A DNA stretch of 64,000 nucleotides from Cyanobacteriota bacterium (lineage in GTDB: Bacteria; Cyanobacteriota; Cyanobacteriia; Cyanobacteriales; Nostocaceae), in the NCBI GenBank assembly GCA_046045965.1, contig JBJOKS010000021.1:49234-113233 (forward strand), read 5' to 3'. Each line of letters begins with the position of its first letter. The first letter of the stretch is position 1. Below the pieces are notes generated by a model that saw only the letters and a list, made by a program, of their open reading frames with translations, ran no database searches and was not told where the DNA came from. The translations under genes were made by a program, and so were the position numbers. Shown here piece by piece: positions 13,213 to 31,026 of the stretch.

Positions 13213-15549
13213 ATGCACCTAGATAATAGAGGGGAAATTGTGATGGATATCGGCTTAAAAATGCAACCTGTTTCAGCTATTAATATAACTAGCTTGAAAG
13301 AAGCACCAATTCACCTTTCGAGCAAAATTCAACCTCATGGTATTGTGTTGGTTTTAGAAGAACCCGAGTTAAAAGTATTACAAGTTAGCAATAATACCTT
13401 AAATGTTTTCGGCATTTCTCCCGAAAATATGGTGCAGAAAAGATTAGAAGATTTAGTAGATTCATTCCAGTTAGAGAGAATTAAATCTGGGATATCAGAG
13501 CAAAATTTAGATTTTATCAACCCTACCAAACTTTGGATTAGAAAAAAAGGTGATGAATACACAGTATTCGATGCTGTATTTCATCGAAATTCTGAAGGAT
13601 TTTTAATTTTAGAATTAGAACCTGCAATTTCGCAAGAAAATATTCCGTTTCTCAGTTTTTATCATTTAGCCAGAGCTTCGATCAATCGTTTAGAAAGTAC
13701 GAAAAATCTGCGGGAATTTTGTCAAATTATTGTCCAAGAAGTGCGACAAGTGACTGGATTTGACAGAGTAATGCTATATAAATTCGATGATGATGGACAT
13801 GGTTCTGTTATCGCTGAAGAAAAAATAGCCGAATTAGAGCCTTATTTGGGGTTACACTATCCAGAGTCAGATATTCCCAAACCTGCGAGAAACTTATTTA
13901 TTTCCAATTCCATTAGATTAATCCCCGATGCTAATGTAGAACCTGTACAAATTTTTCCCGATCATAATCCTGTAACTAATCGTCCCATTGATTTAACTAA
14001 CTCTAGTCTGAGAAGTCCTGCATCTTGCCATATAGAATATCTACATAATATGGGTGTTGGTGCTTCTTTGACAATTTCTTTGATTAAAGATCAAAAACTT
14101 TGGGGTTTAATTGCTTGTCATCATCAAACACCCAAATATGTTTCCTATGAATTACGAAAAGCTTGCGAATTTTTAGGAAGAGTGATATTTTCCGAAATTT
14201 CTGCCAGAGAAGAAACAGAAGATTACGATTATAGAATGAGTTTGACATATATTCAATCACTCTTAGTTGAATATATGTCCCAAGAAGATAACTTCATTGA
14301 TGGTTTGGTCAAAAACCAGCCTAATCTTCTAGATTTAACCAGTGCTAAAGGAGCAGCAGTTTGTTTTGGGGGACATTACACTCTGATTGGTGAAACTCCC
14401 AAAGAAGAAGAACTGAATTTTTTAGTTGAATGGCTGAAAAATAATGTAGAAGATGAAGTATTTTATACGGATTCTCTTCCTAATATTTATCCCGATGCGA
14501 TTAGCTTCAAAAACGTTGCTAGTGGTTTATTAGCTATTCCCATTTCCCAACGCAATTATGTTTTATGGTTTAGACCAGAAGTAATTCAAACTGTGAATTG
14601 GGGTGGTGATCCAAATAAAGCTTTTGAAGTCAATCAATCCCAGGGAAATTTGCAACTGTGTCCCCGAAAATCATTTGAACTGTGGAAAGAAACAGTTAGG
14701 TTAACATCTTTACCTTGGCGATATGTAGAAGTAAAAGCAGCATTGGAATTACGGAAAGCAATCGTCAATATTGTGCTGCGTCAAGCGGATGAATTAGCAC
14801 AGTTGGCACATGATTTAGAAAGGTCTAATGCGGAATTGAAAAAGTTTGCTTATGTCGCTTCCCATGATTTGCAAGAACCACTTAATCAAGTAGCAAATTA
14901 TGTGCAGCTTTTAGAGATGCGTTATGAGTCCGAACTTGATGAAGATGCGAAGGAATTTATTAATTATGCAGTCGAGGGAGTGAGCTTAATGCAAACCTTG
15001 ATTGATGATGTATTAGCATATTCCAAAGTAGATACTCAAGCGATCGCATTTCAAGCAACTGAAGTAGAAACAGCCTTAGAACGAGCATTAAGCAATTTAC
15101 GCAAACGCATTTCCGAAACTGGGACAACTATTATCCATGACTCCTTACCCACTGTCATGGCTGATGGTACTCAACTGATGCAATTATTTTTAAATTTGAT
15201 CGGTAACGCCATCAAATTCCGCTCTCACGAACCACCGCAAATTCATATAGGTGCAGAAAGATTAGAAGATGAATGGTTGTTCTCAGTGCGCGATAATGGA
15301 ATTGGCATAGATCCGCAATTTAGCGATCGCATTTTTATTATCTTTCAACGCCTACACACCAGGGATGAATATCCCGGTACTGGTATGGGTTTAGCAATTT
15401 GTAAAAAAATTATTGAATGCCATCGGGGGCGGATCTGGGTAGAGTCACAACTCGGACAGGGCGCAACCTTCTACTTTACCATTCCAGCCGGAGGACGTGA
15501 TCGTGAGCGTAGAAACGGAAGAAACACACAAAATAATCTTTTTAGTTGA
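13213..15549 (+). CDS. cph1: Cyanobacterial phytochrome histidine kinase (Cph1/AphA/CphA type, PAS-GAF-PHY-HK)
   Basis: IQPHG, YPESDIP, chromophore site [16 protein letters not shown] tongue, SHDLQEPL H-box; start may be 13240 or 13243. Confidence 0.95.
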
Positions 15550-15949
15550 GGATAATAAAGCCGATATCCGTCTGATTCAAGAAGCATTAAAAACTAGTTC
15601 ATTACCTCATCAGGTAGTAACAGTAAGGGATGGAATAGACGCTATGGCCTATCTCCGTCAAGAAGGTGAATATGCTGATGCAATACGCCCCGACCTGATC
15701 TTGCTAGACTTGAATTTACCAAGGAAAGATGGCCGAGAAGTATTGGCAGAAATTAAATCTGATCCCAAACTCAAACGCATACCCGTAGTTGTATTAACAA
15801 CTTCCAAAAATGAAGATGACATTTACCACAGTTACGACTTGCACGTAAACTGCTACATTACCAAATCCCGCAACCTCACTCAATTATTCCAAATCGTCAA
15901 AGGTATTGAGGAATTTTGGTTCTCTACCGCTACCTTACCATCGGAATAA
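15503..15949 (+). CDS. rcp1: Single-domain response regulator Rcp1/RcpA
   Basis: LVEDN, LLDLNLP, C-terminal FW...LP motif; overlaps phytochrome gene; GTG start after GGAGGA. Confidence 0.92.
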
Positions 15950-15974
15950 ATTCATAATTTATAATTCATAACAA

Positions 15975-15997
15975 TGCCTCCGGCACGCTACGCGAAC
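15975..15997. repeat. Small dispersed repeat (SDR-like, 23 nt)
   Basis: TGCCTCCGGCACGCTACGCGAAC; second copy at 17212-17234. Confidence 0.7.
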
Positions 15998-16018
15998 AAA
16001 AACTCCTGACTCCTGAAA

Positions 16019-17185
16019 ATGATGGCTGTAACCTGCTCAGTAAAAATCTTGTTGATTGAAGACAACTTGGCGGAAGCTAGGTTGTTACAAGAGTTTCTGA
16101 AGCAAGCCCAATCTAAAGAGTTTAGTTTAGTTCATGTCCAAAGATTACGAGACGCATTTCATGAGTTAAATCAGCAAAGCTATGATGTAATTTTGCTGGA
16201 TTTAACTTTACCTGATAGTCAAGGATTATCATCCCTACCATTACTAATAAGTCAAGCTCCTAGCACTCCAATTGTTGTTCTGACAAATACAAATGATGAA
16301 GAATTAGCCATTGAAGCCGTGCGAGAAGGAGCGCAAGATTATCTAGTTAAAAGGCAAGTAAAACCAGATGTTTTAGTTCGCTCCGTGCAGTATGCGATCG
16401 CCCGAAAACAAGTTTTAGAACAATTACGTACAGTCAATCAAACATTAGAAACAACAGTTGAAGAAAGAACTGCTCAACTGGAAAAAGCTCAAGAACTCTA
16501 TCAATTTAAATCTGACTTTGTTTCCATGCTTTCCCATGACATTCGTAATCCATTGAATACTATACTCTTAGCTGCGGGATTACTACAAAATAATGATGAC
16601 AAACTAACTCAAGAGAAAAAAATCAATCATTTAAAAATGATTCGCTCTGCTATCAAAAACATGGCGCAATTATTAGATGAAGTCTCATTCATGGGTAAAG
16701 CTGATTCTGGTAAATTACAAAGTCAACTCAGTCCCTTAGATTTAGAAGCATTTTGTCACCAAATACTAGAAGATATTCATTTAACGGCTTTAGAAAAGCA
16801 AGTGACTATAGACTTTACAAGTCATGGTGACTTTAGCTCAACCCTTTGGGATGAAGGTTTATTAAGGCACATTTTAGGAAATCTCCTCAGTAATGCTATT
16901 AAGTATTCCCACCCTGATAGCAAAGTAAATTTTGAATTAATTAGACAAGATAAAACAGCCATTTTCAGAATTCAAGATTGGGGAATTGGCATTTCCAAAA
17001 AAGACCAAAACCAACTATTTATTCCCTTTCATCGTGGGGATAACGTCGGTGGTATTTCCGGCACAGGTATGGGTTTAGCAATTGTGAAAAAGTGTGTTGA
17101 GGCGCATGGTGGTGAAATTTTAGTTGATAGTCAAATTGATGTAGGGACAACATTTACTGTGACTTTACCTTTAATTCAAATTTAA
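16019..17185 (+). CDS. Hybrid REC-histidine kinase
   Basis: N-terminal receiver (LLDLTLPD), SHDIRNPL, NLLSNAIKYS, GTGMGL. Confidence 0.93.
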   Translation: MMAVTCSVKILLIEDNLAEARLLQEFLKQAQSKEFSLVHVQRLRDAFHELNQQSYDVILLDLTLPDSQGLSSLPLLISQAPSTPIVVLTNTNDEELAIEAVREGAQDYLVKRQVKPDVLVRSVQYAIARKQVLEQLRTVNQTLETTVEERTAQLEKAQELYQFKSDFVSMLSHDIRNPLNTILLAAGLLQNNDDKLTQEKKINHLKMIRSAIKNMAQLLDEVSFMGKADSGKLQSQLSPLDLEAFCHQILEDIHLTALEKQVTIDFTSHGDFSSTLWDEGLLRHILGNLLSNAIKYSHPDSKVNFELIRQDKTAIFRIQDWGIGISKKDQNQLFIPFHRGDNVGGISGTGMGLAIVKKCVEAHGGEILVDSQIDVGTTFTVTLPLIQI

Positions 17186-17211
17186 GCAACTTCTTATTCG
17201 TAGATCAACTA

Positions 17212-17234
17212 TCCCTACGGGACGCTACGCGAAC
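17212..17234. repeat. Small dispersed repeat (SDR-like, 23 nt)
   Basis: TCCCTACGGGACGCTACGCGAAC; shares its 3' 13-mer with 15975-15997. Confidence 0.7.
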
Positions 17235-17352
17235 GATGGCATAGTAGCAAATTATATTGATCTAATACTTAGAGTTGTTGATGCTAATGCAGTTGGAATT
17301 ATTGAGACAGAGATGGTTAAAATAGATGAAAAGTCTATTTTGAAAACCTGTC

Positions 17353-17526
17353 ATGTCTACAGAATTAAACATTGAAGACGTACAAGCACCAATTACAACT
17401 GCACCACCGGAAGTCAAGCAGATAATTGAACGAGTATGTAAATTAGAAAAATCGAGATTAGCACGAAAAAGCAAAGGTGCAATTAACGATGATATTTTAA
17501 CCATAGTTAAGGAAGCAGTACAATGA
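17353..17526 (+). CDS. Small 57-aa protein coupled to the SMC-like ATPase (PbeB-like); absent from the ORF track
   Basis: MSTELNIEDVQAPITTAPPEVKQIIERVCKLEKSRLARKSKGAINDDILTIVKEAVQ*; stop overlaps the next start (ATGA). Confidence 0.75.
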   Translation: MSTELNIEDVQAPITTAPPEVKQIIERVCKLEKSRLARKSKGAINDDILTIVKEAVQ

Positions 17527-19589
17527 AATTGACTTCCATTAAACTTTGCAATTTTCGCTCTTTTTATGGTCAGACACCAGAAATTGTCATTGCTAGTGGA
17601 GACTTTCGCAATACTACAATTATTCACGGTAATAATGGTGCAGGAAAAACCAGTTTATTAAATGCTTTTACCTGGGTTTTATATGAAAAATTTACTGCTG
17701 CTTTTGCTGCGATAGAACAGTTAGTTAATAAACGCGCAATTTGCGAAGCTGAAGAAAATCAAGCAGTAGAATGTTGGGTAGAAGTTGGTTGGGAACATGA
17801 AGGAATACGCTACCGTGCAAAACGCACTTGTCGAGTTTATAAAAATTCTGCCACATTGGAAGCAACGAAAACGAAATTAACAATTCAATATGCTAATGAA
17901 GAAGGTAAATGGGGTTTTCCCATAGAACCAGCAGAAGAAATTATCAATAATATTTTACCAGCAAGTTTACATCAATATTTCTTTTTTGATGGGGAAAGAA
18001 TTGAAGAAATAGTCCGTTCTGATAAAAAAACAGAAATTGCAGAAGCAACAGAAACATTTTTAGGTGTGAAAGTCATTGACTTAGCTATTAGACATTTAAA
18101 AGAAGCCAAGAAAACCTTAGATAATGACTTAGCAGCTATTGGTGATGCGGAAACCAAACAGTTATTAAAAGAACAAACTAAACTAGAACAAGAAATTGAA
18201 AGAATTACCCAACGACAAACTGAAATTAAACAAGAGTTGGAAAATCAACAGACGTTTAAAAAAGATGTCAGTAACCGATTGATAGAATTAACTGCGGTTA
18301 AAGAATTACAAGAAAGACGACAAAATTTAGAAACTCAAAAACGCACAAATCAGGAAGAACTAAGAAAAAATAAGGATGCACTCAAAAAGATTATTTCTAA
18401 ACAAGCTTACACAGTTTTATTGGATGAGACTAACCATGAGTTTCGGAAAATAATTACCGATTTAAAACAAAGAGGAGAATTAAAATCGGGAATTTCTAAA
18501 GAATTTGTCGCAGATTTAATTCAATCTGGACGCTGTATTTGTGGTGCAGATTTAAAAGAAGGTGGAAATGGACATTTTCACGTTAAATCTCTCCTGAAAA
18601 AAACAGGTTCTTCTTCAGTGGAAGAAACAGCAATTAGAATGGGAGCGCAAATTGATGATATTGATAAACAAGCAAGTTTATTTTGGGAAAATGTTGATAG
18701 GGAACAAGCAAGAATTAGTCAGCTAAAAGAAGCTCTTGCTCAAATTGAACGTGAATTAGATAACATCCAGGAGATTTTACGAAAAGACCCCAATGAAGAT
18801 ATTAGCGGTTTGCAAAAACGGTTAGATGACATTGAAGCAAAAATTGATGATTTAAATCGAGAACAAGGTGCAAATCAACAGGAAGTTTCTCACATCAAAG
18901 CAGACATTGATGTTTTGGTGAAACAAATTTCTAAACAAAAGCAGAATGAAGAAAAACAAGTATTAGCACAGCGTCGGATGAATGCTGCTCAAGATGCAAT
19001 TGAAAGATTAATTGAGGTAAAAAATAGACAGGAAAACCAATTTAGATTGCAGTTAGAAAAGCGAGTACAGGAAATATTTTCAGAAATTTCTGTGACTCCT
19101 TATATTCCCAAGATTACCGAAAAATATGAACTAACTTTAGTCGAAAATACCACAGGAATAGAAGCACCAGTTGCAGCTTCCACGGGAGAAAATCAAATTC
19201 TCAGTCTGTCCTTTATCGCAAGTATTATTGATAAAGTTAGAGAATGGAGTGAAAAGCGAAAAATCATGATGGTTCCTGATAGTAGCACTTTTCCTATTGT
19301 CATGGATTCACCTTTTGGAAGTTTGGATGCTAATTCTCGTCGTCACATTGCACAAACTATTCCTAAGTTAGCAAATCAGTTGGTTGTTTTGGTGACAAAA
19401 ACTCAATGGAGGGTGGAAGTTGAGGAGGAAATTCTTGATAGAATTGGTAAGGAATATGTGCTGACTTATTATTCTTCTAAACCTGACTGTGAACAGGATT
19501 TTATTGATGTTGGTGGGGAAAAATATGCTTTAATTAGGCAAAGTCCTAATGGTTTTGAGTATACTGAAATTGTGGAGGTGGAAAGGTAG
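17523..19589 (+). CDS. SMC/SbcC-like ABC ATPase, DndD paralogue (PbeC-like)
   Basis: GNNGAGKT, FFFDGERI, long coiled coil with central RCICG, ASTGENQ signature, MDSPFGSLD. Confidence 0.85.
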   Translation: MKLTSIKLCNFRSFYGQTPEIVIASGDFRNTTIIHGNNGAGKTSLLNAFTWVLYEKFTAAFAAIEQLVNKRAICEAEENQAVECWVEVGWEHEGIRYRAKRTCRVYKNSATLEATKTKLTIQYANEEGKWGFPIEPAEEIINNILPASLHQYFFFDGERIEEIVRSDKKTEIAEATETFLGVKVIDLAIRHLKEAKKTLDNDLAAIGDAETKQLLKEQTKLEQEIERITQRQTEIKQELENQQTFKKDVSNRLIELTAVKELQERRQNLETQKRTNQEELRKNKDALKKIISKQAYTVLLDETNHEFRKIITDLKQRGELKSGISKEFVADLIQSGRCICGADLKEGGNGHFHVKSLLKKTGSSSVEETAIRMGAQIDDIDKQASLFWENVDREQARISQLKEALAQIERELDNIQEILRKDPNEDISGLQKRLDDIEAKIDDLNREQGANQQEVSHIKADIDVLVKQISKQKQNEEKQVLAQRRMNAAQDAIERLIEVKNRQENQFRLQLEKRVQEIFSEISVTPYIPKITEKYELTLVENTTGIEAPVAASTGENQILSLSFIASIIDKVREWSEKRKIMMVPDSSTFPIVMDSPFGSLDANSRRHIAQTIPKLANQLVVLVTKTQWRVEVEEEILDRIGKEYVLTYYSSKPDCEQDFIDVGGEKYALIRQSPNGFEYTEIVEVER

Positions 19590-19757
19590 AAGATGAAACG
19601 AACCGCAGAGACGCAGAGGACACAGAGGAAGAGAAGAAATTTATCTGCGTTTATCTGTGTTCATCTGCGTTCAATTTTTTATCTCGCGCAAAGACGCAAA
19701 GGAAAAAAGAAAAAATCATCCGTGTTCATCTGCGTTTAGTTTGAATTATTATCAGGT

Positions 19758-21656
19758 GTGAAAATGTCAATCAAAAAAATCTCATTCATCATCTTTTTAA
19801 GTCTCTTATCTTCCCCAGTTTTAGCGTTTTCTGATACTCGAAATTATTGGGGTAATGATTGTATTAAAATATTAGGAGAACGAAAATTATTAACCGGTTA
19901 TCCTGATGGTAGTTTTCGTCCTAATGCAACTGTTACCCGTGCGGAAGCAGCAGTTTTAATGTTAAATGCTTTTCCTGATGCTCCTATTCAACGCAATGCG
20001 GTAATATTTAAAGATGTACCTAGCAATTTTTGGGCTAATAAAGCTATTAATACTGCTTATCAAAAAGGGTTTTTCTCTGGTTATCCAGGTGGTATTTTTC
20101 AACCTAACCAACAAATTCCTAGAGCGCAAATTATTGGTGTGATAGCTGGGGGTAAAAATTATAATTCTGTTGCTAACCCAGCGCAAATATTACAACGTTA
20201 TTTTGATGATGCTCAACAAATTCCTAATTATGCTCAAAGTTCTATAGCTGCGGGAACAATTAATAGTATTGTTGTTAATTATCCTAATGTTAAACAATTG
20301 AAACCTCTGCAACCAGTAACTAGAGGAGAAGTTGCAGCTTTGATCTGTCGAGCTTTAAATATTTATGCTGTTCCTCCTCAATATATTGCAGGTGTGGAAG
20401 TTCAACCCCAAGAGGTTCGCACTTTACCAGGAAAATTAGACACTATTCCTACTTTTAATAGTAATAGTCCTGAACTTGTGAATACTGATGGAATTTTACT
20501 TTCTACTTTTTCACCAGATGGAAAACAAGTAAAAAATGCACATTTAAATTATCTTTTTCAAGGTCGGTTTGATGTCTTTTCTCATCATATTGTCAGAGCA
20601 GAAAATTCCTCTCAGAATCGTACAGTTTATCAAGGTATAATTGTCCATAACCCTGGTAATGAACCTGCAACTTTACAAGTTTTAAATGCTGCAAGTTATC
20701 TTTCTAGGGAAGCACCTTTTATTGAGTTACCGGATATGCTGGATAATTCCCAAGGAACGGTTTATGCTGGTCCTGGAAGTAGAACTATGAATGATGTTTT
20801 ACGGGGAATTAGACAGGGGATATTTCCCGAAAAGTTGGTGCTAGAACCTGGAAAAACGCAAATTTTAGCTAATTTACCAATTTCTGTCCAAGCACCTTCT
20901 TCCAATGGTCGCACGGTGATGATGCGTTTGAGTAGCGATCGCCCCATTTTTATGGCAAACTTAGCTATGAGTAGTCAAACTCCCCCCACCGTCGTAGCAT
21001 GGGAAAAGCTTCTCAATACTGGCAGTTTAGCAGGAAAACGTGACCCTATCCCCACACCTTTGGACCCTCCCAGAGAACCCACAGTATTTAGTCGCGTTGC
21101 TGGTGTATCTGAGGGGACAAGATGGGAAGCAAATATTACAGATAATACAAGTGTAAATAATTTAACTTTACCCCAACCAGGAAAATCGTTTTCTTATCCT
21201 TTGGGAACTGTACATTTAATCACTCTTAGCACCGGACAAATACAGAGTGCAAAAATGTTAAAACGTTATCCTGATACGGCGTATTTTGCCCATAGTAATT
21301 ATGGTGTAGAGTATAATTTAAGTCTGCCTTTATTCAATTCTAGCAGTCAAGTTAGAAATGTAACAGTGTCAATGCAAACACCTGTTAAGGATGAGGGTGG
21401 TACTGATAGATTATTGTTTTTAAAACCACCTGTGGAACAAGTATTTTTCCGGGGGACGGTGCGGGTACGTTATCGGGATGATAGAGGAAGTGAACAAACG
21501 CGCTATGTCCATTTAGTGCAGCGTCGCGGACAACCGGGGGATGCTTTGGTAAATTTAAAGTTAGCACCAGGGGAAAAAAGACAGGTTCAGGTAGATTTTT
21601 TGTATCCTCCTGATTCTACTCCTCCGCAAGTTTTGACGGTGAAAACTGAGGGGTAA
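19758..21656 (+). CDS. Secreted S-layer homology (SLH) domain protein with DUF3370-like C-terminal region
   Basis: Signal peptide, three SLH repeats (GYPDGSFRPNATVTRAE), FNSNSPE and YPPDSTPPQVLTV. Confidence 0.85.
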   Translation: MKMSIKKISFIIFLSLLSSPVLAFSDTRNYWGNDCIKILGERKLLTGYPDGSFRPNATVTRAEAAVLMLNAFPDAPIQRNAVIFKDVPSNFWANKAINTAYQKGFFSGYPGGIFQPNQQIPRAQIIGVIAGGKNYNSVANPAQILQRYFDDAQQIPNYAQSSIAAGTINSIVVNYPNVKQLKPLQPVTRGEVAALICRALNIYAVPPQYIAGVEVQPQEVRTLPGKLDTIPTFNSNSPELVNTDGILLSTFSPDGKQVKNAHLNYLFQGRFDVFSHHIVRAENSSQNRTVYQGIIVHNPGNEPATLQVLNAASYLSREAPFIELPDMLDNSQGTVYAGPGSRTMNDVLRGIRQGIFPEKLVLEPGKTQILANLPISVQAPSSNGRTVMMRLSSDRPIFMANLAMSSQTPPTVVAWEKLLNTGSLAGKRDPIPTPLDPPREPTVFSRVAGVSEGTRWEANITDNTSVNNLTLPQPGKSFSYPLGTVHLITLSTGQIQSAKMLKRYPDTAYFAHSNYGVEYNLSLPLFNSSSQVRNVTVSMQTPVKDEGGTDRLLFLKPPVEQVFFRGTVRVRYRDDRGSEQTRYVHLVQRRGQPGDALVNLKLAPGEKRQVQVDFLYPPDSTPPQVLTVKTEG

Positions 21657-21769
21657 ATTTATGATTTTTTCTCACGCAGAGTCGCAGAGTCGCAGAGAGA
21701 ATAACGCAAAGGTTTTGTTTTAGTTAATGCAATTTGCTGTAAGATAGTTGGAGTTTAGATTTTATTTTT

Positions 21770-22243
21770 ATGGCTGAATCTGGTAGAATCAGAGTTGCAA
21801 AAGATAAGGCTGATTTGGTTAAGGCTTTAATTTCTTCTGATGGTGGATATGGTCCTTTTCAGACTTTCGCTGATGTGATTGTTTTTGCTGCTGCTTTGGG
21901 GGTAAAGTATAAGAAGCGTGTTCCTTTTGATGAGGTTTCTAAACGTGAACCAGCACCAATTAGGTTGGAAACTTTTATATCAATGGGATATGATATTTTA
22001 ATTAAATTATTGGGAATTACAGAAACTCAAAATATTCAAGTTTTATCCCCTAATGAGGAAGAATATGAAAAACAACGTCATGAAATTTTTGAAGAATACG
22101 CTAATGGTGGTTTAGAAATTTTGCAAGGTGAACTTAGAGGTTCAATTGATTATTCAGACACCATTTTATTATTTTTGATTTCTGATAAAGAGGCTAAAAA
22201 TGAAGAACCTGGAGAATTTGATTTAAGAAAATTTCTAAATTAA
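21770..22243 (+). CDS. DNA phosphorothioation-associated protein 4 (PbeD-like)
   Basis: GPFQTFADVIVFAAALG and IFEEYANGGLEIL motifs; dnd context. Confidence 0.8.
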   Translation: MAESGRIRVAKDKADLVKALISSDGGYGPFQTFADVIVFAAALGVKYKKRVPFDEVSKREPAPIRLETFISMGYDILIKLLGITETQNIQVLSPNEEEYEKQRHEIFEEYANGGLEILQGELRGSIDYSDTILLFLISDKEAKNEEPGEFDLRKFLN

Positions 22244-22283
22244 CAATTTGCAATGTAATTACATTCAATCAATTTTCTAAAAT

Positions 22284-23207
22284 ATGGACACTTTAACATT
22301 ATACTGTCAGAAATTATCTAAACTGAATGTAAGTAGCAGTAAAAAACGTGGTACTGCTCTACATAAACCTATATTAGTGTTATCCGTTATAGATTTAATT
22401 AGTAGAGATATTATTGAAAATAATGAAATTAGAGTATCAGATGAATTAATTGAAACATTTGAAAAATATTGGCAGATAATAGGTTCACATTCTTATACAG
22501 GAGGTTTACATTATCCTTTTTTCCATTTACAAAGTGAAGGTTTTTGGCACTTACAATTTAAATTAGATTTTAATGGCTTACAACCAAAAACAACTAACAG
22601 ATTAAAACAAGCTGTTGAATATGCTTATTTAGATAGTGAATTATTTGAATTGTTGCAAAATGAACTCTCTAGACAAGAATTACTAGATGCACTGATAGCA
22701 GCTTTCTTTCCTGATAGAGATAACCAAATAGATAGCATTTTACAAATTAATCAGAATTTTGAAGATGAAAAAATACTTGCTGAGTATACTGAAAGCAAAC
22801 CTAAGTATACTTTGAAAAAAACAATAATTAGAAATGCTTTCTTTAGAAAAGCAGTTGTTTCTGTCTATGGTTGTCAATGTGCTTTTTGTGGCTTAATAGT
22901 TAACAAAACCATTACTCAAAATATAGTTGATGGCGCACATATAAAACCATTTTCCCAATTTTATGACAGTAGAATACATAACGGCATAGCCTTATGTAAA
23001 AATCATCATTGGGCATTTGATAGAGGTTGGTTTGCTGTTGATGAGAAATACAAAATTATAGTTAGTCAAGACTTAGAAGAAGTATCTCCCCACGCTAAAC
23101 CAATAAAAGATTTTCATGGTGAAAAACTCACACTTCCTAGAATAGAGAAATACTTTCCAGATATTGAAGCTTTAGAATGGCATCGTCAAAACATTTTTCA
23201 ACCCTAA
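22284..23207 (+). CDS. SBD-HNH endonuclease (phosphorothioate-dependent type IV restriction enzyme-like)
   Basis: N-terminal ALHKPILVLSVI and YPFFHLQSEGFW; C-terminal FRKAV..Y..QCAFCG, GAHIKP, NGIALCKNHHWAFDRG. Confidence 0.85.
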   Translation: MDTLTLYCQKLSKLNVSSSKKRGTALHKPILVLSVIDLISRDIIENNEIRVSDELIETFEKYWQIIGSHSYTGGLHYPFFHLQSEGFWHLQFKLDFNGLQPKTTNRLKQAVEYAYLDSELFELLQNELSRQELLDALIAAFFPDRDNQIDSILQINQNFEDEKILAEYTESKPKYTLKKTIIRNAFFRKAVVSVYGCQCAFCGLIVNKTITQNIVDGAHIKPFSQFYDSRIHNGIALCKNHHWAFDRGWFAVDEKYKIIVSQDLEEVSPHAKPIKDFHGEKLTLPRIEKYFPDIEALEWHRQNIFQP

Positions 23208-23230
23208 CTATTAAAGTATCTTCACACATC

Positions 23231-23403
23231 AGCCAGGGAATAAATTAAGAGTCTCAAAGCTAAAGTCGGTTTTAACCGACTATGTAACCTTTATTTTTTC
23301 TATGTGAAAAATAAATTTTGATTGTATTTTGGTTTAATTCGATATCAAAATATAGTACGTTTTAACGTACTTTAGCTATTAGCCCGGAAATTAATTTCCG
23401 GGC
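23231..23403. repeat. REP-like inverted palindrome doublet
   Basis: AGCTAAAGTCGGTTTTAACCGACTA with inverted partner TAGTACGTTTTAACGTACTTTAGCT, plus palindrome GCCCGGAAATTAATTTCCGGGC. Confidence 0.7.
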
Positions 23404-23435
23404 AGGTATGTCAGCAAAAAAATAAATGTTTTCAA

Positions 23436-25034
23436 CTATAAAACTGCTGGTAAACCAACATCTTGCTGTTCAACCAACTTCCCATCAAAACCAATAGTAT
23501 TATCTTCCATAGTTCTAGCATCAGCTAAAGCCTTACGCAAAGCAGCAACTTCCATCTTTTCAGTCATTCCCCCCACAATATAAACTAATAACTTCACCGC
23601 TAAATCTTTTCCTGCAACCTGTACCCGCTTCTTATTAGGGTCATATAAAACCCCATACCATAAAGAATGGGGAAATTCCATTTCACTAAAACCACCTTGA
23701 CGGTCAAATTTTCGCAACTTCTTAAAAATAGCTTCTAACGTAAAACCTTTTTTAAAAACCAAAATTCCCAAAGCTTGCGCTAAAGCAACTTGAGCAACCG
23801 GACGAAATAACATATTTCCTTCACCACCACCTTTTTCAAAACTAAATCTTCGCAAAACTGGCGTATCTTCATGTTCTAAAATCTTATAACTAGGAAGACT
23901 CGCTAAATAATCAAATAACTCCCTAAAATCTGCAATTCCTTCCTGCAATTCTTCATCATCTGGACGCATAGGAATTAGCCCTTTTTCCAAAGGTTTCCAA
24001 TGGGGGAATTTTTGCCCTAAATATCGTTCAGACATATCTTGTAAAGCTTGCAGCGTCGTTAACACAGTAGAATTAGTTGCTACTGTTGCACTATTCCAAT
24101 TTATGCGTTCTTTCCGATTCTCTTTATCTTCTAAAAGTGGATGTGTAACCGCAATTTTTCGCGCTACAATAGCAAAACCATCATCCTCATTTAATTGTGT
24201 TAACTGACCCTTAGTTAAAGGTGCAGCCATTAAATTTACATGAACAAAAATCGACCTTACCCGTCGTTTTGCTTCTGTGTAAGTTTCCCCAGCATCAACC
24301 GCACAAATAAACTCAATGCCAATTTTTTCTTGGGGTATTTTTTGTAACTCAGTTTCACTTACTTGATAATGTTCTAGTAAATCTGATAAAGTAATAAAAC
24401 TATCATTAGGCGTTTTATCCTTTTTACAACGTCTCAATTTTCCAGTTTTAATTAATTCTAATAAACCCTTAACTCCCATCAATCTATGTTGACCATCTAA
24501 TGCATAAATGCTGATATTTTCTTCAGCAACATTCAACAAACCAACTGTGCCATTTTCATCTAAAGGTGTAAAAACAGTAGTAGCTTTTTTAGCAATTCCC
24601 TGACTATCCCACTCATCCGCTTTTGCATTATCAACCCAAGGTTGATTAATTACAACCAATACTGGGGGGAACTTATGATTTTTTCTAGCTGCTAAATATT
24701 GTACTAACGGTGCTTGACGTGACCAGTCAAGAGGACGCTGCTGAACTTCATCAATACTATCCGCATCAATTTCAATATTTTCTGTATCCGGGTTGTAATT
24801 TTTTTGCAACAATGGTAAAGCTGAAGCAAACTGAACTCTGTTTGCAAACCATTCCAATGTAACAGAACCTACATAAGCTTCAATACCACCCATCTGGGTT
24901 TGCTGTACAAGAATTTGATCTTTTTTACCTAAAAACTGCTCTAGTAATACAGATAACGTCTGTTGGTTCTGATTATCGTTTTCTGGATATTGTTGAGAAA
25001 TGTTACGATTTGGTTCAGATGTGGTATCAATCAT
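23436..25034 (-). CDS. DGQHR-domain protein (DndB-like)
   Basis: QQRPLD, ALDGQHRL, IFVHVN; divergent from dndC. Confidence 0.88.
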   Translation of the reverse strand: MIDTTSEPNRNISQQYPENDNQNQQTLSVLLEQFLGKKDQILVQQTQMGGIEAYVGSVTLEWFANRVQFASALPLLQKNYNPDTENIEIDADSIDEVQQRPLDWSRQAPLVQYLAARKNHKFPPVLVVINQPWVDNAKADEWDSQGIAKKATTVFTPLDENGTVGLLNVAEENISIYALDGQHRLMGVKGLLELIKTGKLRRCKKDKTPNDSFITLSDLLEHYQVSETELQKIPQEKIGIEFICAVDAGETYTEAKRRVRSIFVHVNLMAAPLTKGQLTQLNEDDGFAIVARKIAVTHPLLEDKENRKERINWNSATVATNSTVLTTLQALQDMSERYLGQKFPHWKPLEKGLIPMRPDDEELQEGIADFRELFDYLASLPSYKILEHEDTPVLRRFSFEKGGGEGNMLFRPVAQVALAQALGILVFKKGFTLEAIFKKLRKFDRQGGFSEMEFPHSLWYGVLYDPNKKRVQVAGKDLAVKLLVYIVGGMTEKMEVAALRKALADARTMEDNTIGFDGKLVEQQDVGLPAVL

Positions 25035-25225
25035 AGTAGTTTTTAAAAACTTATTCCCAGAGTAGATAGCTTATTTTTCCAAAAAAATGGATACTAGGAT
25101 TATAGTTTTTGAAAACTATTTTGGGAAATTAATGTAAACTAACTTAGTATAATTAGTTTCCTGTGCTTACATTTGCTTCTATAGGAAGAATTAATTCATA
25201 TCCATGTATTTACAGGTATAAAGTC

Positions 25226-26833
25226 ATGAATACAGCACAACAACCAGACAGTAAAACTCAGCAAAATCGCACTGTAGCAGAATTAGTAGACTATATTCAA
25301 GTTCTCACTACAGAAATTCAAGAATTATATTGTTTAGATGCTATCCCTTGGGTTGTCGGTTATTCCGGTGGAAAAGACAGTACAGCAACTTTACAACTTA
25401 TTTGGAATGCAATTTCTGGACTTCCACCGGAAAAAAGAACTAAAACTATTCATGTCATTACCACAGATACAGGTGTAGAAAATCCTTATGTTTCTGCTTG
25501 GGTAAGTAATTCATTAAAACAAATGGAAATTGCTGCTCAAGAACAAAAAATGCCAATGACACCACATTTACTACAACCAGAAACTAAACAAACATATTGG
25601 GCAGGTTTAATAGGTAAAGGTTATCCTGCACCCCGTCATACATTTCGCTGGTGTACAGGAAGGCTAAAAATTGATCCTTCTAACCGTTTTATTCGTGATG
25701 TGGTTAGAGCTAGTGGTGAAACAATTGTTATATTAGGAACTCGCAAAACTGAAAGTAAAAATCGCGCTTTAATTATGACAAAGAGAGAAGAGGGAAGAGT
25801 CAGAGATAGGCTTTGTCCTCATCCTAGTCTCATTAATTCTTTGTTATATACACCTATTGAAGATTGGCGTAATGATGAAGTTTGGCTATATTTAATGCAA
25901 TGGGAAAATCCTTGGAGACATAGTAATAAAGATTTATTTAATATGTATAGAGAGTCAACAGCAGATAATGAATGTCCTTTAGTTGTTGATACATCTACTC
26001 CTAGTTGTGGTAACTCTCGTTTTGGGTGTTGGGTTTGCACATTAGTTAGCAGTGACAAATCTTTAAACGCCATGATTCAAAATGATGAAGAAAAAGAATG
26101 GATGCAACCAATAGTTGATTTTCGTCGAGAATTAGACATTGAACATGATAGAGAGAAAAGAGATTTTCGCCGGATCTGGGGAGAAGTTCAATTATTTGAA
26201 CGTAATAAAAACGGTGAAACATCTGTTGAACCAATACCAGGACCATATACAAAATATTGGCGTGAGTATTGGTTAAGAAAACTATTAACAGCGCAAACCG
26301 AAATGCGGCAAAACGCCCCAGAAAATATGCGCGACATTACCTTAATTTCTATGGAAGAACTCAGCGAAATTCGCCGGATCTGGCTAGAAGAAAAACACGA
26401 ATTTGATGATAGTTTACCCCGTATCTATCAAGAAGTCACAGGAGAAGCATTTAAAGATCCCCGTCCTGGTTCAGATTATAGCCTACTTGGTAGCGATGAA
26501 TGGGAAGTATTAGAAGAAATTTGTGATGGTGATGGAATGCAATTAGAACTGATGGCTAAATTACTAGATACAGAACGCCAATTTAAGAAAAAAACGCGCC
26601 GTGTGGGAATTTATGAAAGTTTAGAAAAATGCTTTGATACAAGTTCTCGTTCTCAAGAGGAAGCCATTAAAAATGCCCATTTAAAACGGGATTTAAGAGA
26701 AGCCGCTAGTAAAGGTGATGTGGCGACAATTCGCGCAGCATTTAAACAATTAAATATCGGTGAAACTCCAGCAAAGGAAGAGAATAAACCCGATAGTTTT
26801 GCAGGTAGGAAGTTTAAGAAAAAGGAAGAGTGA
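25226..26833 (+). CDS. dndC: DNA phosphorothioation sulfurtransferase DndC
   Basis: PWVVGYSGGKDS, GKGYPAP..FRWCTGRLKI, CGNSRFGCWVCT; ATG at 25226 preferred over GTG at 25163. Confidence 0.96.
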   Translation: MNTAQQPDSKTQQNRTVAELVDYIQVLTTEIQELYCLDAIPWVVGYSGGKDSTATLQLIWNAISGLPPEKRTKTIHVITTDTGVENPYVSAWVSNSLKQMEIAAQEQKMPMTPHLLQPETKQTYWAGLIGKGYPAPRHTFRWCTGRLKIDPSNRFIRDVVRASGETIVILGTRKTESKNRALIMTKREEGRVRDRLCPHPSLINSLLYTPIEDWRNDEVWLYLMQWENPWRHSNKDLFNMYRESTADNECPLVVDTSTPSCGNSRFGCWVCTLVSSDKSLNAMIQNDEEKEWMQPIVDFRRELDIEHDREKRDFRRIWGEVQLFERNKNGETSVEPIPGPYTKYWREYWLRKLLTAQTEMRQNAPENMRDITLISMEELSEIRRIWLEEKHEFDDSLPRIYQEVTGEAFKDPRPGSDYSLLGSDEWEVLEEICDGDGMQLELMAKLLDTERQFKKKTRRVGIYESLEKCFDTSSRSQEEAIKNAHLKRDLREAASKGDVATIRAAFKQLNIGETPAKEENKPDSFAGRKFKKKEE

Positions 26834-26845
26834 TAATAAATCCTT

Positions 26846-26957
26846 TCTCGTTCCTAGACTCTGGCTAGGAATGCCTAATGTGAGGCTCTGCCTCAGACAG
26901 TTATAAACGAGGCAGAGCCTCTTGTACAGCGTTCCCAGGCAGAGCCAGGGAACGAGA
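26846..26957. repeat. 112-bp palindromic REP/MITE-like element between dndC and dndD
   Basis: TCTCGTTCC...GGAACGAGA termini with internal GAGGCTCTGCCTC/GAGGCAGAGCCTC inverted pair. Confidence 0.8.
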
Positions 26958-26982
26958 TCATTATTAAAAAACCACCCAAACC

Positions 26983-28971
26983 ATGATATTCCTCGAACTC
27001 GTACTGCAAAATTTTGGTCCCTATGCTGGGAGACAAGTTATCAACCTCAACCCCAAAATAGATGATGATAATATCCGCCCTATCATTCTTTTAGGTGGTA
27101 TGAATGGTGGTGGAAAAACCACCCTCATGGATGCTATTCGTCTGGCTTTATATGGACATCGCGCTCAATGTTCAACTCGTGGTAATCTCAGTTATAGTGA
27201 TTTTTTAAATCAATGCGTTAATAGCAAAGCTAACCCCATTGATAAAACTCGAATTGAGTTAGTTTTTGAACATATTGAAGACGATAAACCAGTTAAATAT
27301 CGTGTTGTCAGAACTTGGGAAAAAAATCCTAAAGATGGTAAAGACTCTTTAGGTATTTTAGGAGAGGATGATACTTGGCCTATTGATTCTTTAGCGAATA
27401 TCTGGGATGAATATATAGAAAATATTTTACCTTTAGGTATTTCTAATTTATTTCTGTTTGACGGTGAACAAGTCAAGGAACTAGCAGAACAAGAAACACC
27501 TCCCCCTCTTGTTATAGATGCCATTAACGGACTTTTAGGATTAGAATTAGCTGATAAATTAGCAATAGATTTAGAAATATTAGTCAATCGTAAAAAAAAG
27601 GAAAGTGCAGATAATCAAGATTTAGCTAAATTAGAAGAAATTGAAAACCGTCTTAGTCAAAAACTGGAAGATGAAGAAACTGCGAAAGAAGAATTAGAAG
27701 CATTAAATAGTAAATTAGAAGAATTAGAAATAAAACACGAAGAAGCTTTAAATAAGTTCGTTTCAGAAGGTGGTAAAATTGCTGCTGAACGCAGTCAATT
27801 GGAAACACAAACGCAAGATAAAACTAAGATTACAGAAAATATCCGTCAATCTTTATGTGAAGTAGCGGCTGATGTTTTACCTTTGGCTTTAATTCCTAAT
27901 TTATTATCTCAAGTTCAAACCCAATGTGAAAGAGAATTTCGTATTCAACAAATTCAATTAGCTAAAGATATATTAATTGCTAGAGATCAAAGATTAATTG
28001 ATTGGTTAAATCAGTCTAATTTGGAATCAGATAAACTGAATAATATTCAATCTTTCTTAGCTGAAGACATAAATAAACTATATGCAGCTAATTCATCTAC
28101 AGAAACTAATTGGTTAAATGCTGATGAAGAAACTTTAACTTTACTTGACAATTTCATATATCGTCTCCAAATTAACCAAGATACTGCCCAAAAGCAGTTA
28201 ATTGAACTAAATAATTATGAGGAGGAAATTCTCACCCTAGAAAGACAAATGCAAACAGCCGCAGAACCAGAAGAATATACAAAGCTAAAAAATGATTTGC
28301 AGAAAGCGCAAACAGAACTGAATAAAGTACAAACTCAAAGAGAAATAACCAGCCGTAATTTAATAGAATTAGAAACAGTAATTAATCAAACCAAAAAAGA
28401 GCTAAATAATTATACGAGCGAAAATCTCAAATATCAAAGTAATGAACATTTGATTAATGCAGCTACTCAAGTACAGAATACATTAAAAATATTTAGAGAA
28501 AGATTGACTTTGAGGAAATTAAATAAATTAGAAGAAGAAGTAAAAAATTGTTTCTTGTATTTATTACATAAATCAGATTTAGTCCATCGTATTGCTATTG
28601 ATGCTAAAACCTTCAGCCTATCATTATATGATTTAAACGGTAAACCAGTAGCCAAACATCGACTTTCCGCCGGAGAAAAACAACTATTAGCGATCGCCTT
28701 CCTGTGGGGTTTAGCAAAAGTATCAGGAAAACGCCTCCCAGTCGCTATTGACACACCTTTAGGAAGACTCGACTCATCCCATAGAAACAACCTAGTAGAA
28801 AGATACTTTCCCTCAGCTAGCCATCAAGTAATTCTCCTTTCCACCGACACCGAAATAGCTAAAAAAGAATATCAAACCCTCCAAGAAACCGAAGCGATCG
28901 CCCGCGAATACCTCCTCAAATACGACTCCAGCAAACGAGAAACCACCATCAAACCCGGTTATTTTTGGTAA
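26983..28971 (+). CDS. dndD: DNA sulfur modification ATPase DndD
   Basis: GGMNGGGKTT, LFLFDGEQ, LSAGEKQL, IDTPLGRLDSSHR, LLSTDTEI, C-terminal GYFW. Confidence 0.96.
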   Translation: MIFLELVLQNFGPYAGRQVINLNPKIDDDNIRPIILLGGMNGGGKTTLMDAIRLALYGHRAQCSTRGNLSYSDFLNQCVNSKANPIDKTRIELVFEHIEDDKPVKYRVVRTWEKNPKDGKDSLGILGEDDTWPIDSLANIWDEYIENILPLGISNLFLFDGEQVKELAEQETPPPLVIDAINGLLGLELADKLAIDLEILVNRKKKESADNQDLAKLEEIENRLSQKLEDEETAKEELEALNSKLEELEIKHEEALNKFVSEGGKIAAERSQLETQTQDKTKITENIRQSLCEVAADVLPLALIPNLLSQVQTQCEREFRIQQIQLAKDILIARDQRLIDWLNQSNLESDKLNNIQSFLAEDINKLYAANSSTETNWLNADEETLTLLDNFIYRLQINQDTAQKQLIELNNYEEEILTLERQMQTAAEPEEYTKLKNDLQKAQTELNKVQTQREITSRNLIELETVINQTKKELNNYTSENLKYQSNEHLINAATQVQNTLKIFRERLTLRKLNKLEEEVKNCFLYLLHKSDLVHRIAIDAKTFSLSLYDLNGKPVAKHRLSAGEKQLLAIAFLWGLAKVSGKRLPVAIDTPLGRLDSSHRNNLVERYFPSASHQVILLSTDTEIAKKEYQTLQETEAIAREYLLKYDSSKRETTIKPGYFW

Positions 28972-29032
28972 ATCTTTCCTTCCTTCTTTCCTCTGTGTCC
29001 TCTGCGCCTCTGCGGTTCGTTAATCAAAAATC

Positions 29033-29431
29033 ATGGAATCACCAATAGAACGCATTAAAATCTCCCAAACAGCCAAAGAACAACTGATCAAACTCAAACG
29101 CCACACCAAAATAGAACAATGGAATATACTATGTCGTTGGGCGTTTTGTCGTTCCCTCGCCGAACCAGCCGCACCCACCCCCGTACCCATACCCCAAGAT
29201 AGCAACGTCGAAATGACCTGGCGTGTATTTGGTGGCGAAATAGCCGATATATTGCTTCTAGCACTCAAACAACGCTGTCACAACGACGGCTTAGACACAG
29301 ACAAAGAAACCCTCATCACCCAATTTCGCCTACATTTACATCGGGGTATAGGATATTTAGCAGGAGATCCAAATATTAAGAGAATTGAAGATTTAATCGA
29401 ACTGGCAACAAAGAAAGTAAAATCCTCCTGA
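29033..29431 (+). CDS. dndE: DNA sulfur modification protein DndE
   Basis: KLKRHTKIEQWNILCRWAFCRSL, EMTWRVFGG, HLHRGIGYL. Confidence 0.96.
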   Translation: MESPIERIKISQTAKEQLIKLKRHTKIEQWNILCRWAFCRSLAEPAAPTPVPIPQDSNVEMTWRVFGGEIADILLLALKQRCHNDGLDTDKETLITQFRLHLHRGIGYLAGDPNIKRIEDLIELATKKVKSS

Positions 29432-29511
29432 CTTCACAAAAAACAGAAGTTACTTAATTTTGACTTTATTGGCCTCATCTGTTCCCTATTCCCTGTTCCC
29501 TGTTCCCTCCC

Positions 29512-31026
29512 ATGAAAGAAATTCAAGCACTGCGACAGGCATTTCAAAGCCGAAAAATGTCTGGTTTGCTGTTACTAGGCTTTGCCTCTGGACTGCCATT
29601 ATTCTTAACAACCCGCACACTTCAACTATGGATGAAAGATGCCGATGTTGACGTTGCCAAAATCACATTATTTGGATTGGTTAGTTTACCATACTCCTTA
29701 AAATTCATTTGGTCGCCTTTAATTGATAGATTTTCTCCCCCATTTTTAGGAGGCAGAAAAGGTTGGTTATTTTTAACTCAAATCGGGTTAGTAATAGCTA
29801 TATTAGCAATGGCATTACAACAACCAAGCCAGAACACACAAATATTAATGACATTAGCAATTACATCATTTATAATTGCTTTTTTAAGTGCAACTCAAGA
29901 TATTGCTGGTGACGCTTATCGCACAGAAATTTTAAATCCTTTGGAATTGGAAACAGGCGCTTCTCTCTGGGTCTTAGGTTATCGTGTTGCCCTGTTTATC
30001 GCCTTTTCCCTAGCAGCATGGTTAGCCGGATTTATGCCTTGGAATATAGTTTATTTATTCATGGCAGGATTTATGTCAATTGGTTTAATTACTACTCTTT
30101 TCGTACCATCAGAACCACAAATAGAAAATAGTTCTATAGCCGCAAATAACAGATCCTTAAAAAGTAAAGATATTATATTTCTCTTAGTGATCATCACCAT
30201 CATTACAAGTTTAGTAGGTGGTGTGATTTCCGAATTTATTCCCTTAAAAGTATTTTATTGGATATTAGGTGGATTGCTCATAACTTGGATTAGCGCCTCA
30301 ATTATTCTCCCCAAACCTCAACTAAATGAAAATCAGGAGAATATCACACCCCAAACATTACAAGAAGCAGTAATTTTACCATTACAAATATTCTTAGAAA
30401 AATTCGGCATCACCAAAGCATTGATAATTCTCATATTTATCATTCTCTATAAACTGGGTGACTCCCTAGTAGGCATTACAGCTAACTTATTCGCTAAAGA
30501 GATTAAATTTGATAACCAAGAACTCGCAACAGTTTATATTATTGGTTTGGTTGCCACTACCGTAGGAGTCATCTTAGGTGGGATAATAATGTCCAGAATC
30601 GGCATCTATCGCGCCCTTTGGATATTTGGCGCACTGCAATTACTCAGCAACTTGGGTTATTATGCACTAGCTATCACTGGTAAAGATTACTCTATGTTAG
30701 CGATCGCCATCATGATTGAAAATACCAGCGCCGGATTAGTCACAGTGGCAACCGTAGCTTATTTAATGAGTTTATGCAGCCACAACTTCACCACCACACA
30801 ATTTGCCCTCTTTTCTAGCCTTATGGCCTTAAGTCGAGACGTTCTTTCCGCACCCGCAGGAGATTTAGCCAAAGCCACAGGCTGGCCTTCATTCTTCCTG
30901 ATCTCTATGGTAGCAGCCCTACCTGGATTGCTGCTATTACCCCTAGTTGCTCCCTGGAACTCAAAACCATTAGCATTCACCAGACCAGGACTTGAAGCAG
31001 AAGAGGATTTATGGGGAACCAAGTAG
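29512..31026 (+). CDS. ampG: AmpG-family muropeptide MFS permease
   Basis: GFASGLP, KFIWSPLIDR, SATQDI, TTQFALFSS. Confidence 0.9.
   Translation: MKEIQALRQAFQSRKMSGLLLLGFASGLPLFLTTRTLQLWMKDADVDVAKITLFGLVSLPYSLKFIWSPLIDRFSPPFLGGRKGWLFLTQIGLVIAILAMALQQPSQNTQILMTLAITSFIIAFLSATQDIAGDAYRTEILNPLELETGASLWVLGYRVALFIAFSLAAWLAGFMPWNIVYLFMAGFMSIGLITTLFVPSEPQIENSSIAANNRSLKSKDIIFLLVIITIITSLVGGVISEFIPLKVFYWILGGLLITWISASIILPKPQLNENQENITPQTLQEAVILPLQIFLEKFGITKALIILIFIILYKLGDSLVGITANLFAKEIKFDNQELATVYIIGLVATTVGVILGGIIMSRIGIYRALWIFGALQLLSNLGYYALAITGKDYSMLAIAIMIENTSAGLVTVATVAYLMSLCSHNFTTTQFALFSSLMALSRDVLSAPAGDLAKATGWPSFFLISMVAALPGLLLLPLVAPWNSKPLAFTRPGLEAEEDLWGTK

Follow-up and report, generated by a model that had tools for sequence, protein, structure and literature searches.

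We analyzed a 64,000-nucleotide stretch of DNA from a member of the Nostocaceae (Cyanobacteriota bacterium; GenBank assembly GCA_046045965.1, contig JBJOKS010000021.1, positions 49,234 to 113,233 of the forward strand), referred to below as the window. Its positions 17353 to 29431 carry the DNA phosphorothioate (PT) genes dndCDE together with pbeB, pbeC, pbeD and a gene for a predicted SBD-HNH nuclease. The locus is the family-wide Dnd-Pbe system of the Nostocaceae, broken here between pbeA and pbeB; its PbeA is helicase only, and the SBD-HNH gene occupies a swappable slot. Of this architecture we are highly confident. Furthermore, the DndC specificity region, PbeD and the SBD co-vary in matched sets on either side of a conserved gene, whereas the HNH domain takes no part in this. 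The best explanation overall, to which we assign a probability of about 0.5, joins this architecture to a mechanism in which DndCDE would write PT, a PbeD-matched scanner would read it, and SBD-HNH would serve as an accessory against DNA with foreign-type PT. The mechanism taken by itself falls slightly short of even odds. The features of the locus are the following (aa, amino acids):

17186..17352, no strand: junction with the histidine-kinase gene (16019-17185) at the usual place of pbeA; the likeness of relatives starts at about 17290.
17353..17526, plus strand: pbeB, 57 aa, stop codon overlapping the pbeC start (open reading frame position and orthology).
17523..19589, plus strand: pbeC, CxC-type ABC ATPase, 688 aa (PADLOC PbeC, 1122 bits; motifs).
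19758..21656, plus strand: SLH + DUF3370 protein, 632 aa, a patchy passenger between pbeC and pbeD (Pfam, gene maps).
21770..22243, plus strand: pbeD, 157 aa, DndE-fold ribbon-helix-helix protein, allele motif IRLETF (TIGR04062).
22284..23207, plus strand: predicted SBD-HNH nuclease, 307 aa, without SRA domain (profile, residues, model).
23436..25034, minus strand: long DGQHR / DndB-like protein, 532 aa (TIGR03187, 195 bits).
25226..26833, plus strand: dndC, ATG at 25226 and an upstream GTG at 25163, loop triad R-H-T (TIGR03183, 702 bits).
26983..28971, plus strand: dndD, 662 aa (TIGR03185, 729 bits).
29033..29431, plus strand: dndE, 132 aa (TIGR03184, 139 bits; PF08870).

The locus is a split copy of a family-wide Dnd-Pbe system

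A preliminary description of this DNA had proposed a new architecture with PbeB/C/D-like genes, no PbeA and an SBD-HNH nuclease instead, and had named as the alternative that PbeA is encoded elsewhere. The alternative proved right. The absence of a gene for a PLD nuclease/superfamily 2 (SF2) helicase holds for the window but not for the genome, in which contig C34 carries an intact pbeA behind lexA (C34:11631-12977; TIGR04095, 671.5 bits against a cutoff of 600; no stops). The product has 493 aa and reaches 544 bits with the PADLOC PbeA model, and its Walker A motif was identical in all 34 orthologues fetched.

In three genomes of the same genus (G001, G002 and G003), pbeA lies directly ahead of pbeB-pbeC. 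The G002 locus maps to C34 through the pbeA stop codon and then to the window, starting about 60 bases upstream of pbeB; the breakpoint is the pbeA/pbeB spacer. The new neighbors, histidine kinase and metallophosphoesterase genes, are 0.75 to 12.5 kb apart in G001 to G003. The window junction was spanned by a contig from the run of another study (X3; 17090-17584) and was also bridged by a contig of run X1, possibly the source sample; this read-based bridging covers the window junction only. Small-share runs were left out of consideration. Misassembly as the cause of the split was disfavored, as both breaks are mid-contig, the new neighbors are likewise near one another in G001 to G003, and an independent run bridges the window junction. 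From the G002 mapping, the neighbor proximity and the bridging contig, we conclude that the split is a recent local rearrangement between pbeA and pbeB.

The four Pbe genes thus do not form one unit here: they are split at pbeA/pbeB, and a passenger gene stands between pbeC and pbeD. Across 41 genomes (the source genome and 40 relatives), 38 yielded pbeA and 39 each yielded pbeC, pbeD and dndC; pbeD was present in 98 of 101 family genomes. In 22 of the 34 fetched pbeA loci, pbeC follows within 1.2 kb. The usual order in Nostocaceae is argF-lexA-pbeA-pbeB-pbeC-(passengers)-pbeD-(slot)-DGQHR(reverse)-dndC-dndD-dndE.

The 57-, 688- and 157-aa proteins are PbeB, PbeC and PbeD, as had been suspected: they are 53, 51 and 45% identical to the products of genes 2 to 4 of the intact pbeA-B-C-D operon of genome G173. 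PbeB had no family match in the profile scans and was assigned by position and orthology; its reading frame overlaps the start of the ABC ATPase gene, so that the coupling noticed earlier is present. The ATPase had been called SMC-like and is instead of the CxC/zinc-hook type, with CIC at residue 338 (Walker A at 36, CxC at 338, signature at 553, Walker B near 594). PbeD, which had been recognized as dnd-associated protein 4, matched TIGR04062 with 192 bits (cutoff, 74) and had no PADLOC match. A DndE-like fold is expected for PbeD (PMC10853773, section 16). Indeed, its model (predicted local distance difference test score, 85.8) matched DndE structures 7X4E (Z 9.0; root mean square deviation [rmsd] 3.6; 111 aligned) and 5WTU (Z 8.0), with the next match at 5.7. 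Sequence searches of solved structures with DndC and with the PbeD profile returned nothing useful.

PbeA is a helicase without nuclease domain

The resident PbeA matches only positions 241-681 of the 682-position profile and lacks the N-terminal PLD/HKD nuclease domain. All 34 fetched orthologues are similarly short (377 to 558 aa). Among 151 genomes of the phylum, 47 had PbeA matches. A short copy, starting at profile position 218 to 245, was present in 44, all from this order; five genomes had a full-length PbeA, and two of these also have a short copy. PLDc_2 was detected in three full-length controls, below the cutoff for G173 and above it for the other two. The full-length PbeA of G173 is 69% identical and is sister to the 33 short rows (FastTree support, 99; long branches elsewhere). 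This distribution indicates that PbeA lost its PLD nuclease domain in an ancestor of the order and retained an intact SF2 helicase, which, jointly with the architecture, we regard as very probable. We found no description of such an order-wide loss in the published literature searched (supplements not covered).

The 269-aa N terminus of the G173 PbeA had no match in the source genome, which is 92% complete. A free-standing PLD partner for the short PbeA was rejected: none was found in the source genome, and matches in 14 of the 41 genomes (13 at 32 to 42% identity) lay mostly inside frames of more than 1000 aa. As a separate observation, G037 contains a free-standing 179-aa frame (G037:C43:3656-4195) that is 66% identical to the lost PLD domain and is possibly a relic of PbeA fission. 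This genome also has a short PbeA and an SBD-HNH gene unlinked from pbeD, near which the SLH + DUF3370 gene is found.

SBD-HNH is one of several occupants of a slot behind pbeD

The SBD-HNH gene at 22284-23207 is real and starts 40 bases after pbeD. The N terminus of the protein aligns with the SBD of Hga (E 1.2e-17), and its SBD model fits the Hga SBD (PDB 8H0L) with an rmsd of 1.9 over 143 columns (fold match E 4.9e-9). Five sulfur-pocket positions of the SBD have been defined (PMC10602919). The pocket is complete in this copy, in which H27, K28, Y77, P78 and H81 align with Hga H25, K26, L75, P76 and H79. The HNH residues are C199, C202, H219, N233, C238, H241 and H242. H219, N233, C199, C238, H241 and H242 were invariant in all 80 alignment rows. 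These rows represent the window and 79 loci; a split locus was left out, and a stop occurs in two rows. The dN/dS ratio was 0.11 to 0.37 in 11 pairs.

We read the best 80 of 414 related stretches. All 80 SBD-HNH genes lie in pbe/dnd loci; 73 of them follow pbeD at a distance of at most 300 bases, and the other 7 immediately precede dndC. The preliminary description had counted an intact pbeA elsewhere, together with sporadic HNH adjacency, against its own proposal; pbeA is indeed elsewhere, but the adjacency is conserved. Since the 6-kb flank shows pbeA in 43 of the 80 loci, SBD-HNH does not replace pbeA.

Of 98 family loci read, 81 were readable through the slot between pbeD and the DGQHR gene. 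It contained a full SBD-HNH gene in 23, a remnant in 3, DndB alone in 21, none of the queried genes in 19 and other content in 15. The 55 loci without any trace of SBD-HNH nevertheless keep pbeD and dndC, and SBD-HNH therefore cannot be the general effector. Other cargo comprised AIPR/AbiU-like, GIY-YIG, different HNH and DrmA/DrmB-like genes, and a single PbeD allele can be accompanied by HNH, by AIPR or by a slot without cargo. We conclude that SBD-HNH is no stray gene and is one of several swappable occupants.

In G016, where pbeA was not found, a four-gene DrmE/DrmA/DrmB-like block lies behind pbeD (L037:4268-12194). In two other loci (L017:8633-10627 and L018:10188-10868), genes for a 664-aa DndB-like protein and a GIY-YIG-like protein fill the slot in combination with an RNQ DndC loop; this pair is also present in G038, from another family.

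DndC, PbeD and SBD alleles vary as matched sets

In six pairs of close relatives with differing alleles, DNA identity was about 63 to 77% in pbeD and in the SBD half of the HNH gene. It recovered to values of about 90% or higher in the remainder of that gene and in the DGQHR gene. In the five of these pairs that reach dndC, it dropped again in the first half of dndC. This half of DndC harbors a "specificity loop," mutation of which abolishes PT (PMC12193691). In three same-allele pairs, identity was high throughout.

With PbeC and DGQHR distance removed (n = 50, a few allele types dominating), SBD distance showed a partial r of 0.90 with PbeD and 0.72 with the DndC specificity region, while the corresponding values for the HNH domain were 0.05 and 0.19. 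DndE and DndD did not track the DndC region (-0.13 and 0.08; n = 16).

The DndC region falls into six sequence classes in the 81 family loci, and the class changes at least 35 times on the DndD tree (74 rows). On the DGQHR tree, 10 of 11 independent pairs joined DndC class 5 to PbeD class 7, and the reverse never occurred (p 0.002); for DndC class 3 and PbeD class 9, the count was about 9 of 12 (median p 0.012). For class 1, p was 0.06, and significance was not reached by classes 2, 4 and 6. On the DndD tree, four of four tested classes held (p 0.002 to 0.03; PbeD motifs picked from the same data). A careful run was used for the PbeD tree, a quick tree for PbeC and FastTree for the others.

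The presence of SBD-HNH also differed between DndC classes. Full genes were found in 11 of 12 loci of class 1, 6 of 8 of class 4 and 6 of 12 of class 5, but in none of class 3 (28 loci), class 6 (15) and class 2 (6). With classes grouped post hoc, this amounts to 0/49 in classes 2, 3 and 6 versus 23/32 in classes 1, 4 and 5. Because of the post hoc grouping, a Fisher test of HNH versus DndC class was not counted as evidence; in independent pairs, p was below 0.05 for class 1 only. The Y-type SBD, whose base-reading loop is nearly constant, occurs with ten DndC loop signatures, which fits tolerance better than one-to-one reading. No paper describing allele matching of DndC, PbeD and SBD was found in the literature searched.

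Proposed mechanism and alternatives

According to our preferred explanation, DndCDE would write PT with sulfur from a housekeeping IscS/NifS, and the PT motif or context would be set by the swappable DndC region. PbeC and PbeD would scan DNA with the helicase-only PbeA. PbeD would read the site that DndC writes, so that the PbeD allele would have to fit the DndC allele. The scanner would probably stall invader DNA without cutting, as reported for the archaeal system. SBD-HNH would be an add-on, type IV-like enzyme that binds PT in a non-host context and cuts nearby, destroying DNA or phages raised in bacteria with another PT type. We propose that only compatible DndC alleles allow it to be tolerated, which keeps it tied to pbeD and dndC.

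Several observations weigh against this explanation. A smaller set of 23 genomes gave a weak PbeD signal without specificity for the DndC specificity region (partial r 0.21, versus 0.25 for the DndC C terminus). The co-variation would also fit a self-reading effector: the N/L-type SBD occurred with an RNR DndC loop in 14 of 14 cases, and classes 1 and 4 share PbeD and SBD types and may thus write one motif. G001 and G002 pair the pbeD-HNH type of the source genome with a class 4 DndC. The published loop rule gives GGCC for most DndCs, those of the HNH-free class 3 and the HNH-bearing class 4 among them, so the classes, for which we infer different motifs, may not differ in motif; the R-H-T triad of the window DndC fits none of the three published patterns exactly. 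Furthermore, SBD-HNH stays below the NF045808 cutoff (125.4 versus 180 bits), and 72 of 80 rows carry Tyr or Asn at the position of the conserved pocket His, a replacement that may change how most family members bind PT. GGCC was the most under-represented four-base word (rho 0.42). As under-representation of GGCC is common in bacteria, this was not used as evidence.

A self-reading role is the core of a possible, less probable alternative, namely that SBD-HNH is the nuclease of the helicase-only Pbe machine. It would read host PT, be restrained until PbeABCD meets invader DNA, and then cut invader or host DNA (abortive infection), replacing the lost PLD domain in some lineages. In its favor, the resident PbeA has no nuclease domain, and no free PLD copy was found in the source genome. 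All 80 best relatives are dnd/pbe-linked, compared with less than 3.6% of SBD-HNH homologues near dnd in the sets of Lutz et al. (PMC7461809), the gene closely follows pbeD, and the SBD rather than the HNH domain tracks PbeD and the DndC region. In addition, Rakesh et al. (PMC10853773) propose restriction or suicide roles for such nucleases. However, the 55 HNH-free loci retain pbeD and dndC, one PbeD allele tolerates different slot contents, and 7 of 80 relatives lie before dndC and not behind pbeD. Moreover, cutting at host PT would be lethal unless inhibited, and this alternative would require an inhibitor. A predicted complex of PbeD and SBD-HNH scored 0.01 (mark, 0.32; controls not folded) and was counted neither for nor against binding.

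A broader picture can be put forward tentatively. Matched DndC/PbeD/SBD sets may define at least five PT "self types" for a nuclease-less, order-wide Pbe scanner. Genera would exchange these sets, with free recombination of the DNA in between; PbeD would act as the specificity subunit, and slot effectors (SBD-HNH, GIY-YIG, AIPR, DndB-like) would replace the lost PLD domain.

It is unlikely that SBD-HNH merely hitchhikes with pbeD by adjacency in a system domesticated for DNA maintenance (oxidative damage or PT turnover), in which matched alleles would reflect protein-protein fit or descent and not motifs. Single-copy presence in 38 to 39 of 41 genomes, an adjacent upstream lexA in 21 loci, of which 16 have a strict LexA box, and DndC loops that mostly fit one published motif are in line with such a role, and long vertical descent and an antioxidant role are argued for in PMC8569181. 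The frequent changes of DndC class on the DndD tree, the matching of PbeD to DndC across a conserved intervening gene, and the defense-type cargo of the slot (AIPR/AbiU-like, GIY-YIG, HNH, DrmA/DrmB) speak against it, and rapid matched swapping is typical of restriction specificity. An architecture without PbeA altogether, with HNH in its place, can be dismissed, for although the window itself holds no pbeA, the intact gene is on C34, adjoins pbeC in G001 to G003 and accompanies HNH in 43 of 80 flanks.

Dnd module, lexA linkage and other features of the window

The preliminary calls of dndC-D-E and of a divergent DGQHR gene held. All three dnd genes exceed the NCBIfam cutoffs and contain no stops, and the DGQHR gene is on the minus strand, divergent from dndC and convergent with the HNH gene. 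Its product was the only PF14072 match in the genome and a weak DndB match (43 bits). We also observed that the long DGQHR gene stands head to head with dndC in nearly all loci read and is better conserved than its neighbors. In line with the reported lack of dndA, nothing in the source genome exceeded the TIGR03235 cutoff (480); three IscS/NifS-like genes with 329 to 430 bits are candidate sulfur donors. For dndFGH, only TIGR03237 was searched, and nothing was found (no positive control; genome 92% complete). A TIGR04096 dnd-associated putative methyltransferase gene (G000:C63:6554-8521; 741-aa frame, with a second partial match) is unlinked in the source genome and lies behind dndE in some relatives.

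On C34, the order is argF-lexA-pbeA (L007:8620-11977, minus strand). In 21 of the 34 fetched loci, lexA is immediately upstream of pbeA at a spacing of 17 to 311 bases, with a strict LexA box in 16. A one-mismatch LexA-box-like site lies 33 to 46 bases before lexA of the source genome, where the PCC 7120 box is published; such one-mismatch sites numbered 5 in 19 kb versus 4.8 by chance. Positions 17001-29600 of the window contain no strict-pattern LexA box. In view of the lexA-pbeA spacing and the 16 strict boxes, SOS control of pbeA is possible.

The 632-aa SLH + DUF3370 gene (19758-21656) was missing from the preliminary description; it was found again between pbeC and pbeD in many relatives. 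Upstream of pbeB (13213-17185), the window carries genes for a 778-aa sensor kinase that looks phytochrome-like by eye, a response regulator and a hybrid kinase. These genes now abut pbeB, and a new promoter may thus drive pbeBC. Between the converging HNH and DGQHR genes are two perfect 7-bp inverted repeats with 4-base loops (23264-23281 and 23354-23371). A promoter/terminator scan was at chance level (42 found versus 41.8 expected; 10 versus 8.5). Contigs of RNA run X4, the library of which may contain DNA, touch pbeB-pbeC, pbeD and part of the HNH gene. Contigs of X1 and X4 leave dndC at about 25916 with an identical 255-base loose end, possibly an insertion or another strain in the population.

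Significance and comparison with known systems

How Pbe discriminates self from non-self, and how a PT-cutting nuclease can exist beside PT-writing genes, are open questions that this locus makes testable. The matched DndC/PbeD/SBD alleles permit swap experiments with clear predictions in genetically tractable cyanobacteria. The order-wide helicase-only PbeA is relevant both to the disputed question of DNA cutting by Pbe and to the view of cyanobacterial PT as an orphan antioxidant mark. The split in this window is a local rearrangement only. The claimed new architecture is not real; the locus is a locally split copy of the known Dnd-Pbe system, and its remaining variant features are the helicase-only PbeA, the swappable slot and the matched specificity alleles.

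The closest known systems are DndCDEA-PbeABCD of Haloterrigena jeotgali A29 (Xiong et al. 2019, PMC6459918) and the CxC ABC-ATPase-DndE-cognate system (Rakesh et al. 2024, PMC10853773), in which a small protein, a CxC ATPase, a DndE-fold protein and an SF2 helicase likewise stand beside dndCDE. As in the archaeal Pbe system, no DndH-type gene was found here. Unlike in that system, PbeA has no PLD domain, pbeA is unlinked and behind lexA, no dndA exceeds the cutoff, a passenger gene separates pbeC and pbeD, and the system is near-universal in the order and not sporadic. In H. jeotgali, weak resistance persisted after deletion of pbeA, and cleavage of viral DNA was not observed. Xiong et al. report no co-evolution of DndCD and PbeAC in a comparison that did not include PbeD, whose alleles here track those of DndC.

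SBD-HNH resembles SprMcrA, EcoWI and Mae9806I (NF045808; SBD of Hga, PDB 8H0L) in its SBD-linker-HNH layout, its zinc-finger HNH and, in this copy, its complete sulfur pocket. Characterized enzymes of this type cut next to PT in a sequence-selective manner, and differing specificity is one way to coexist with dnd (Lutz et al.). The present family differs in being dnd/pbe-linked in all 80 relatives read, in its low NF045808 score, in the replaced pocket His of most rows, and in SBD alleles that match DndC alleles. SBD-HNH genes in dnd neighborhoods are already known: proteins with a winged helix-turn-helix (SBD), SAD/SRA and HNH occur there in 698 taxa (PMC10853773, section 17). They share with our protein a PT-reader HNH (predicted here) in a dnd locus, whereas the 307-aa protein has no SRA. 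Finally, the locus agrees with the "solitary" dnd clusters of cyanobacteria (Jian et al. 2021, PMC8569181) in being Nostocales-enriched, with no dndFGH found, varied in gene order and vertically descended. In the main text of that paper, restriction counts as absent and pbe is never mentioned, whereas Pbe genes are here as widespread as dndC.

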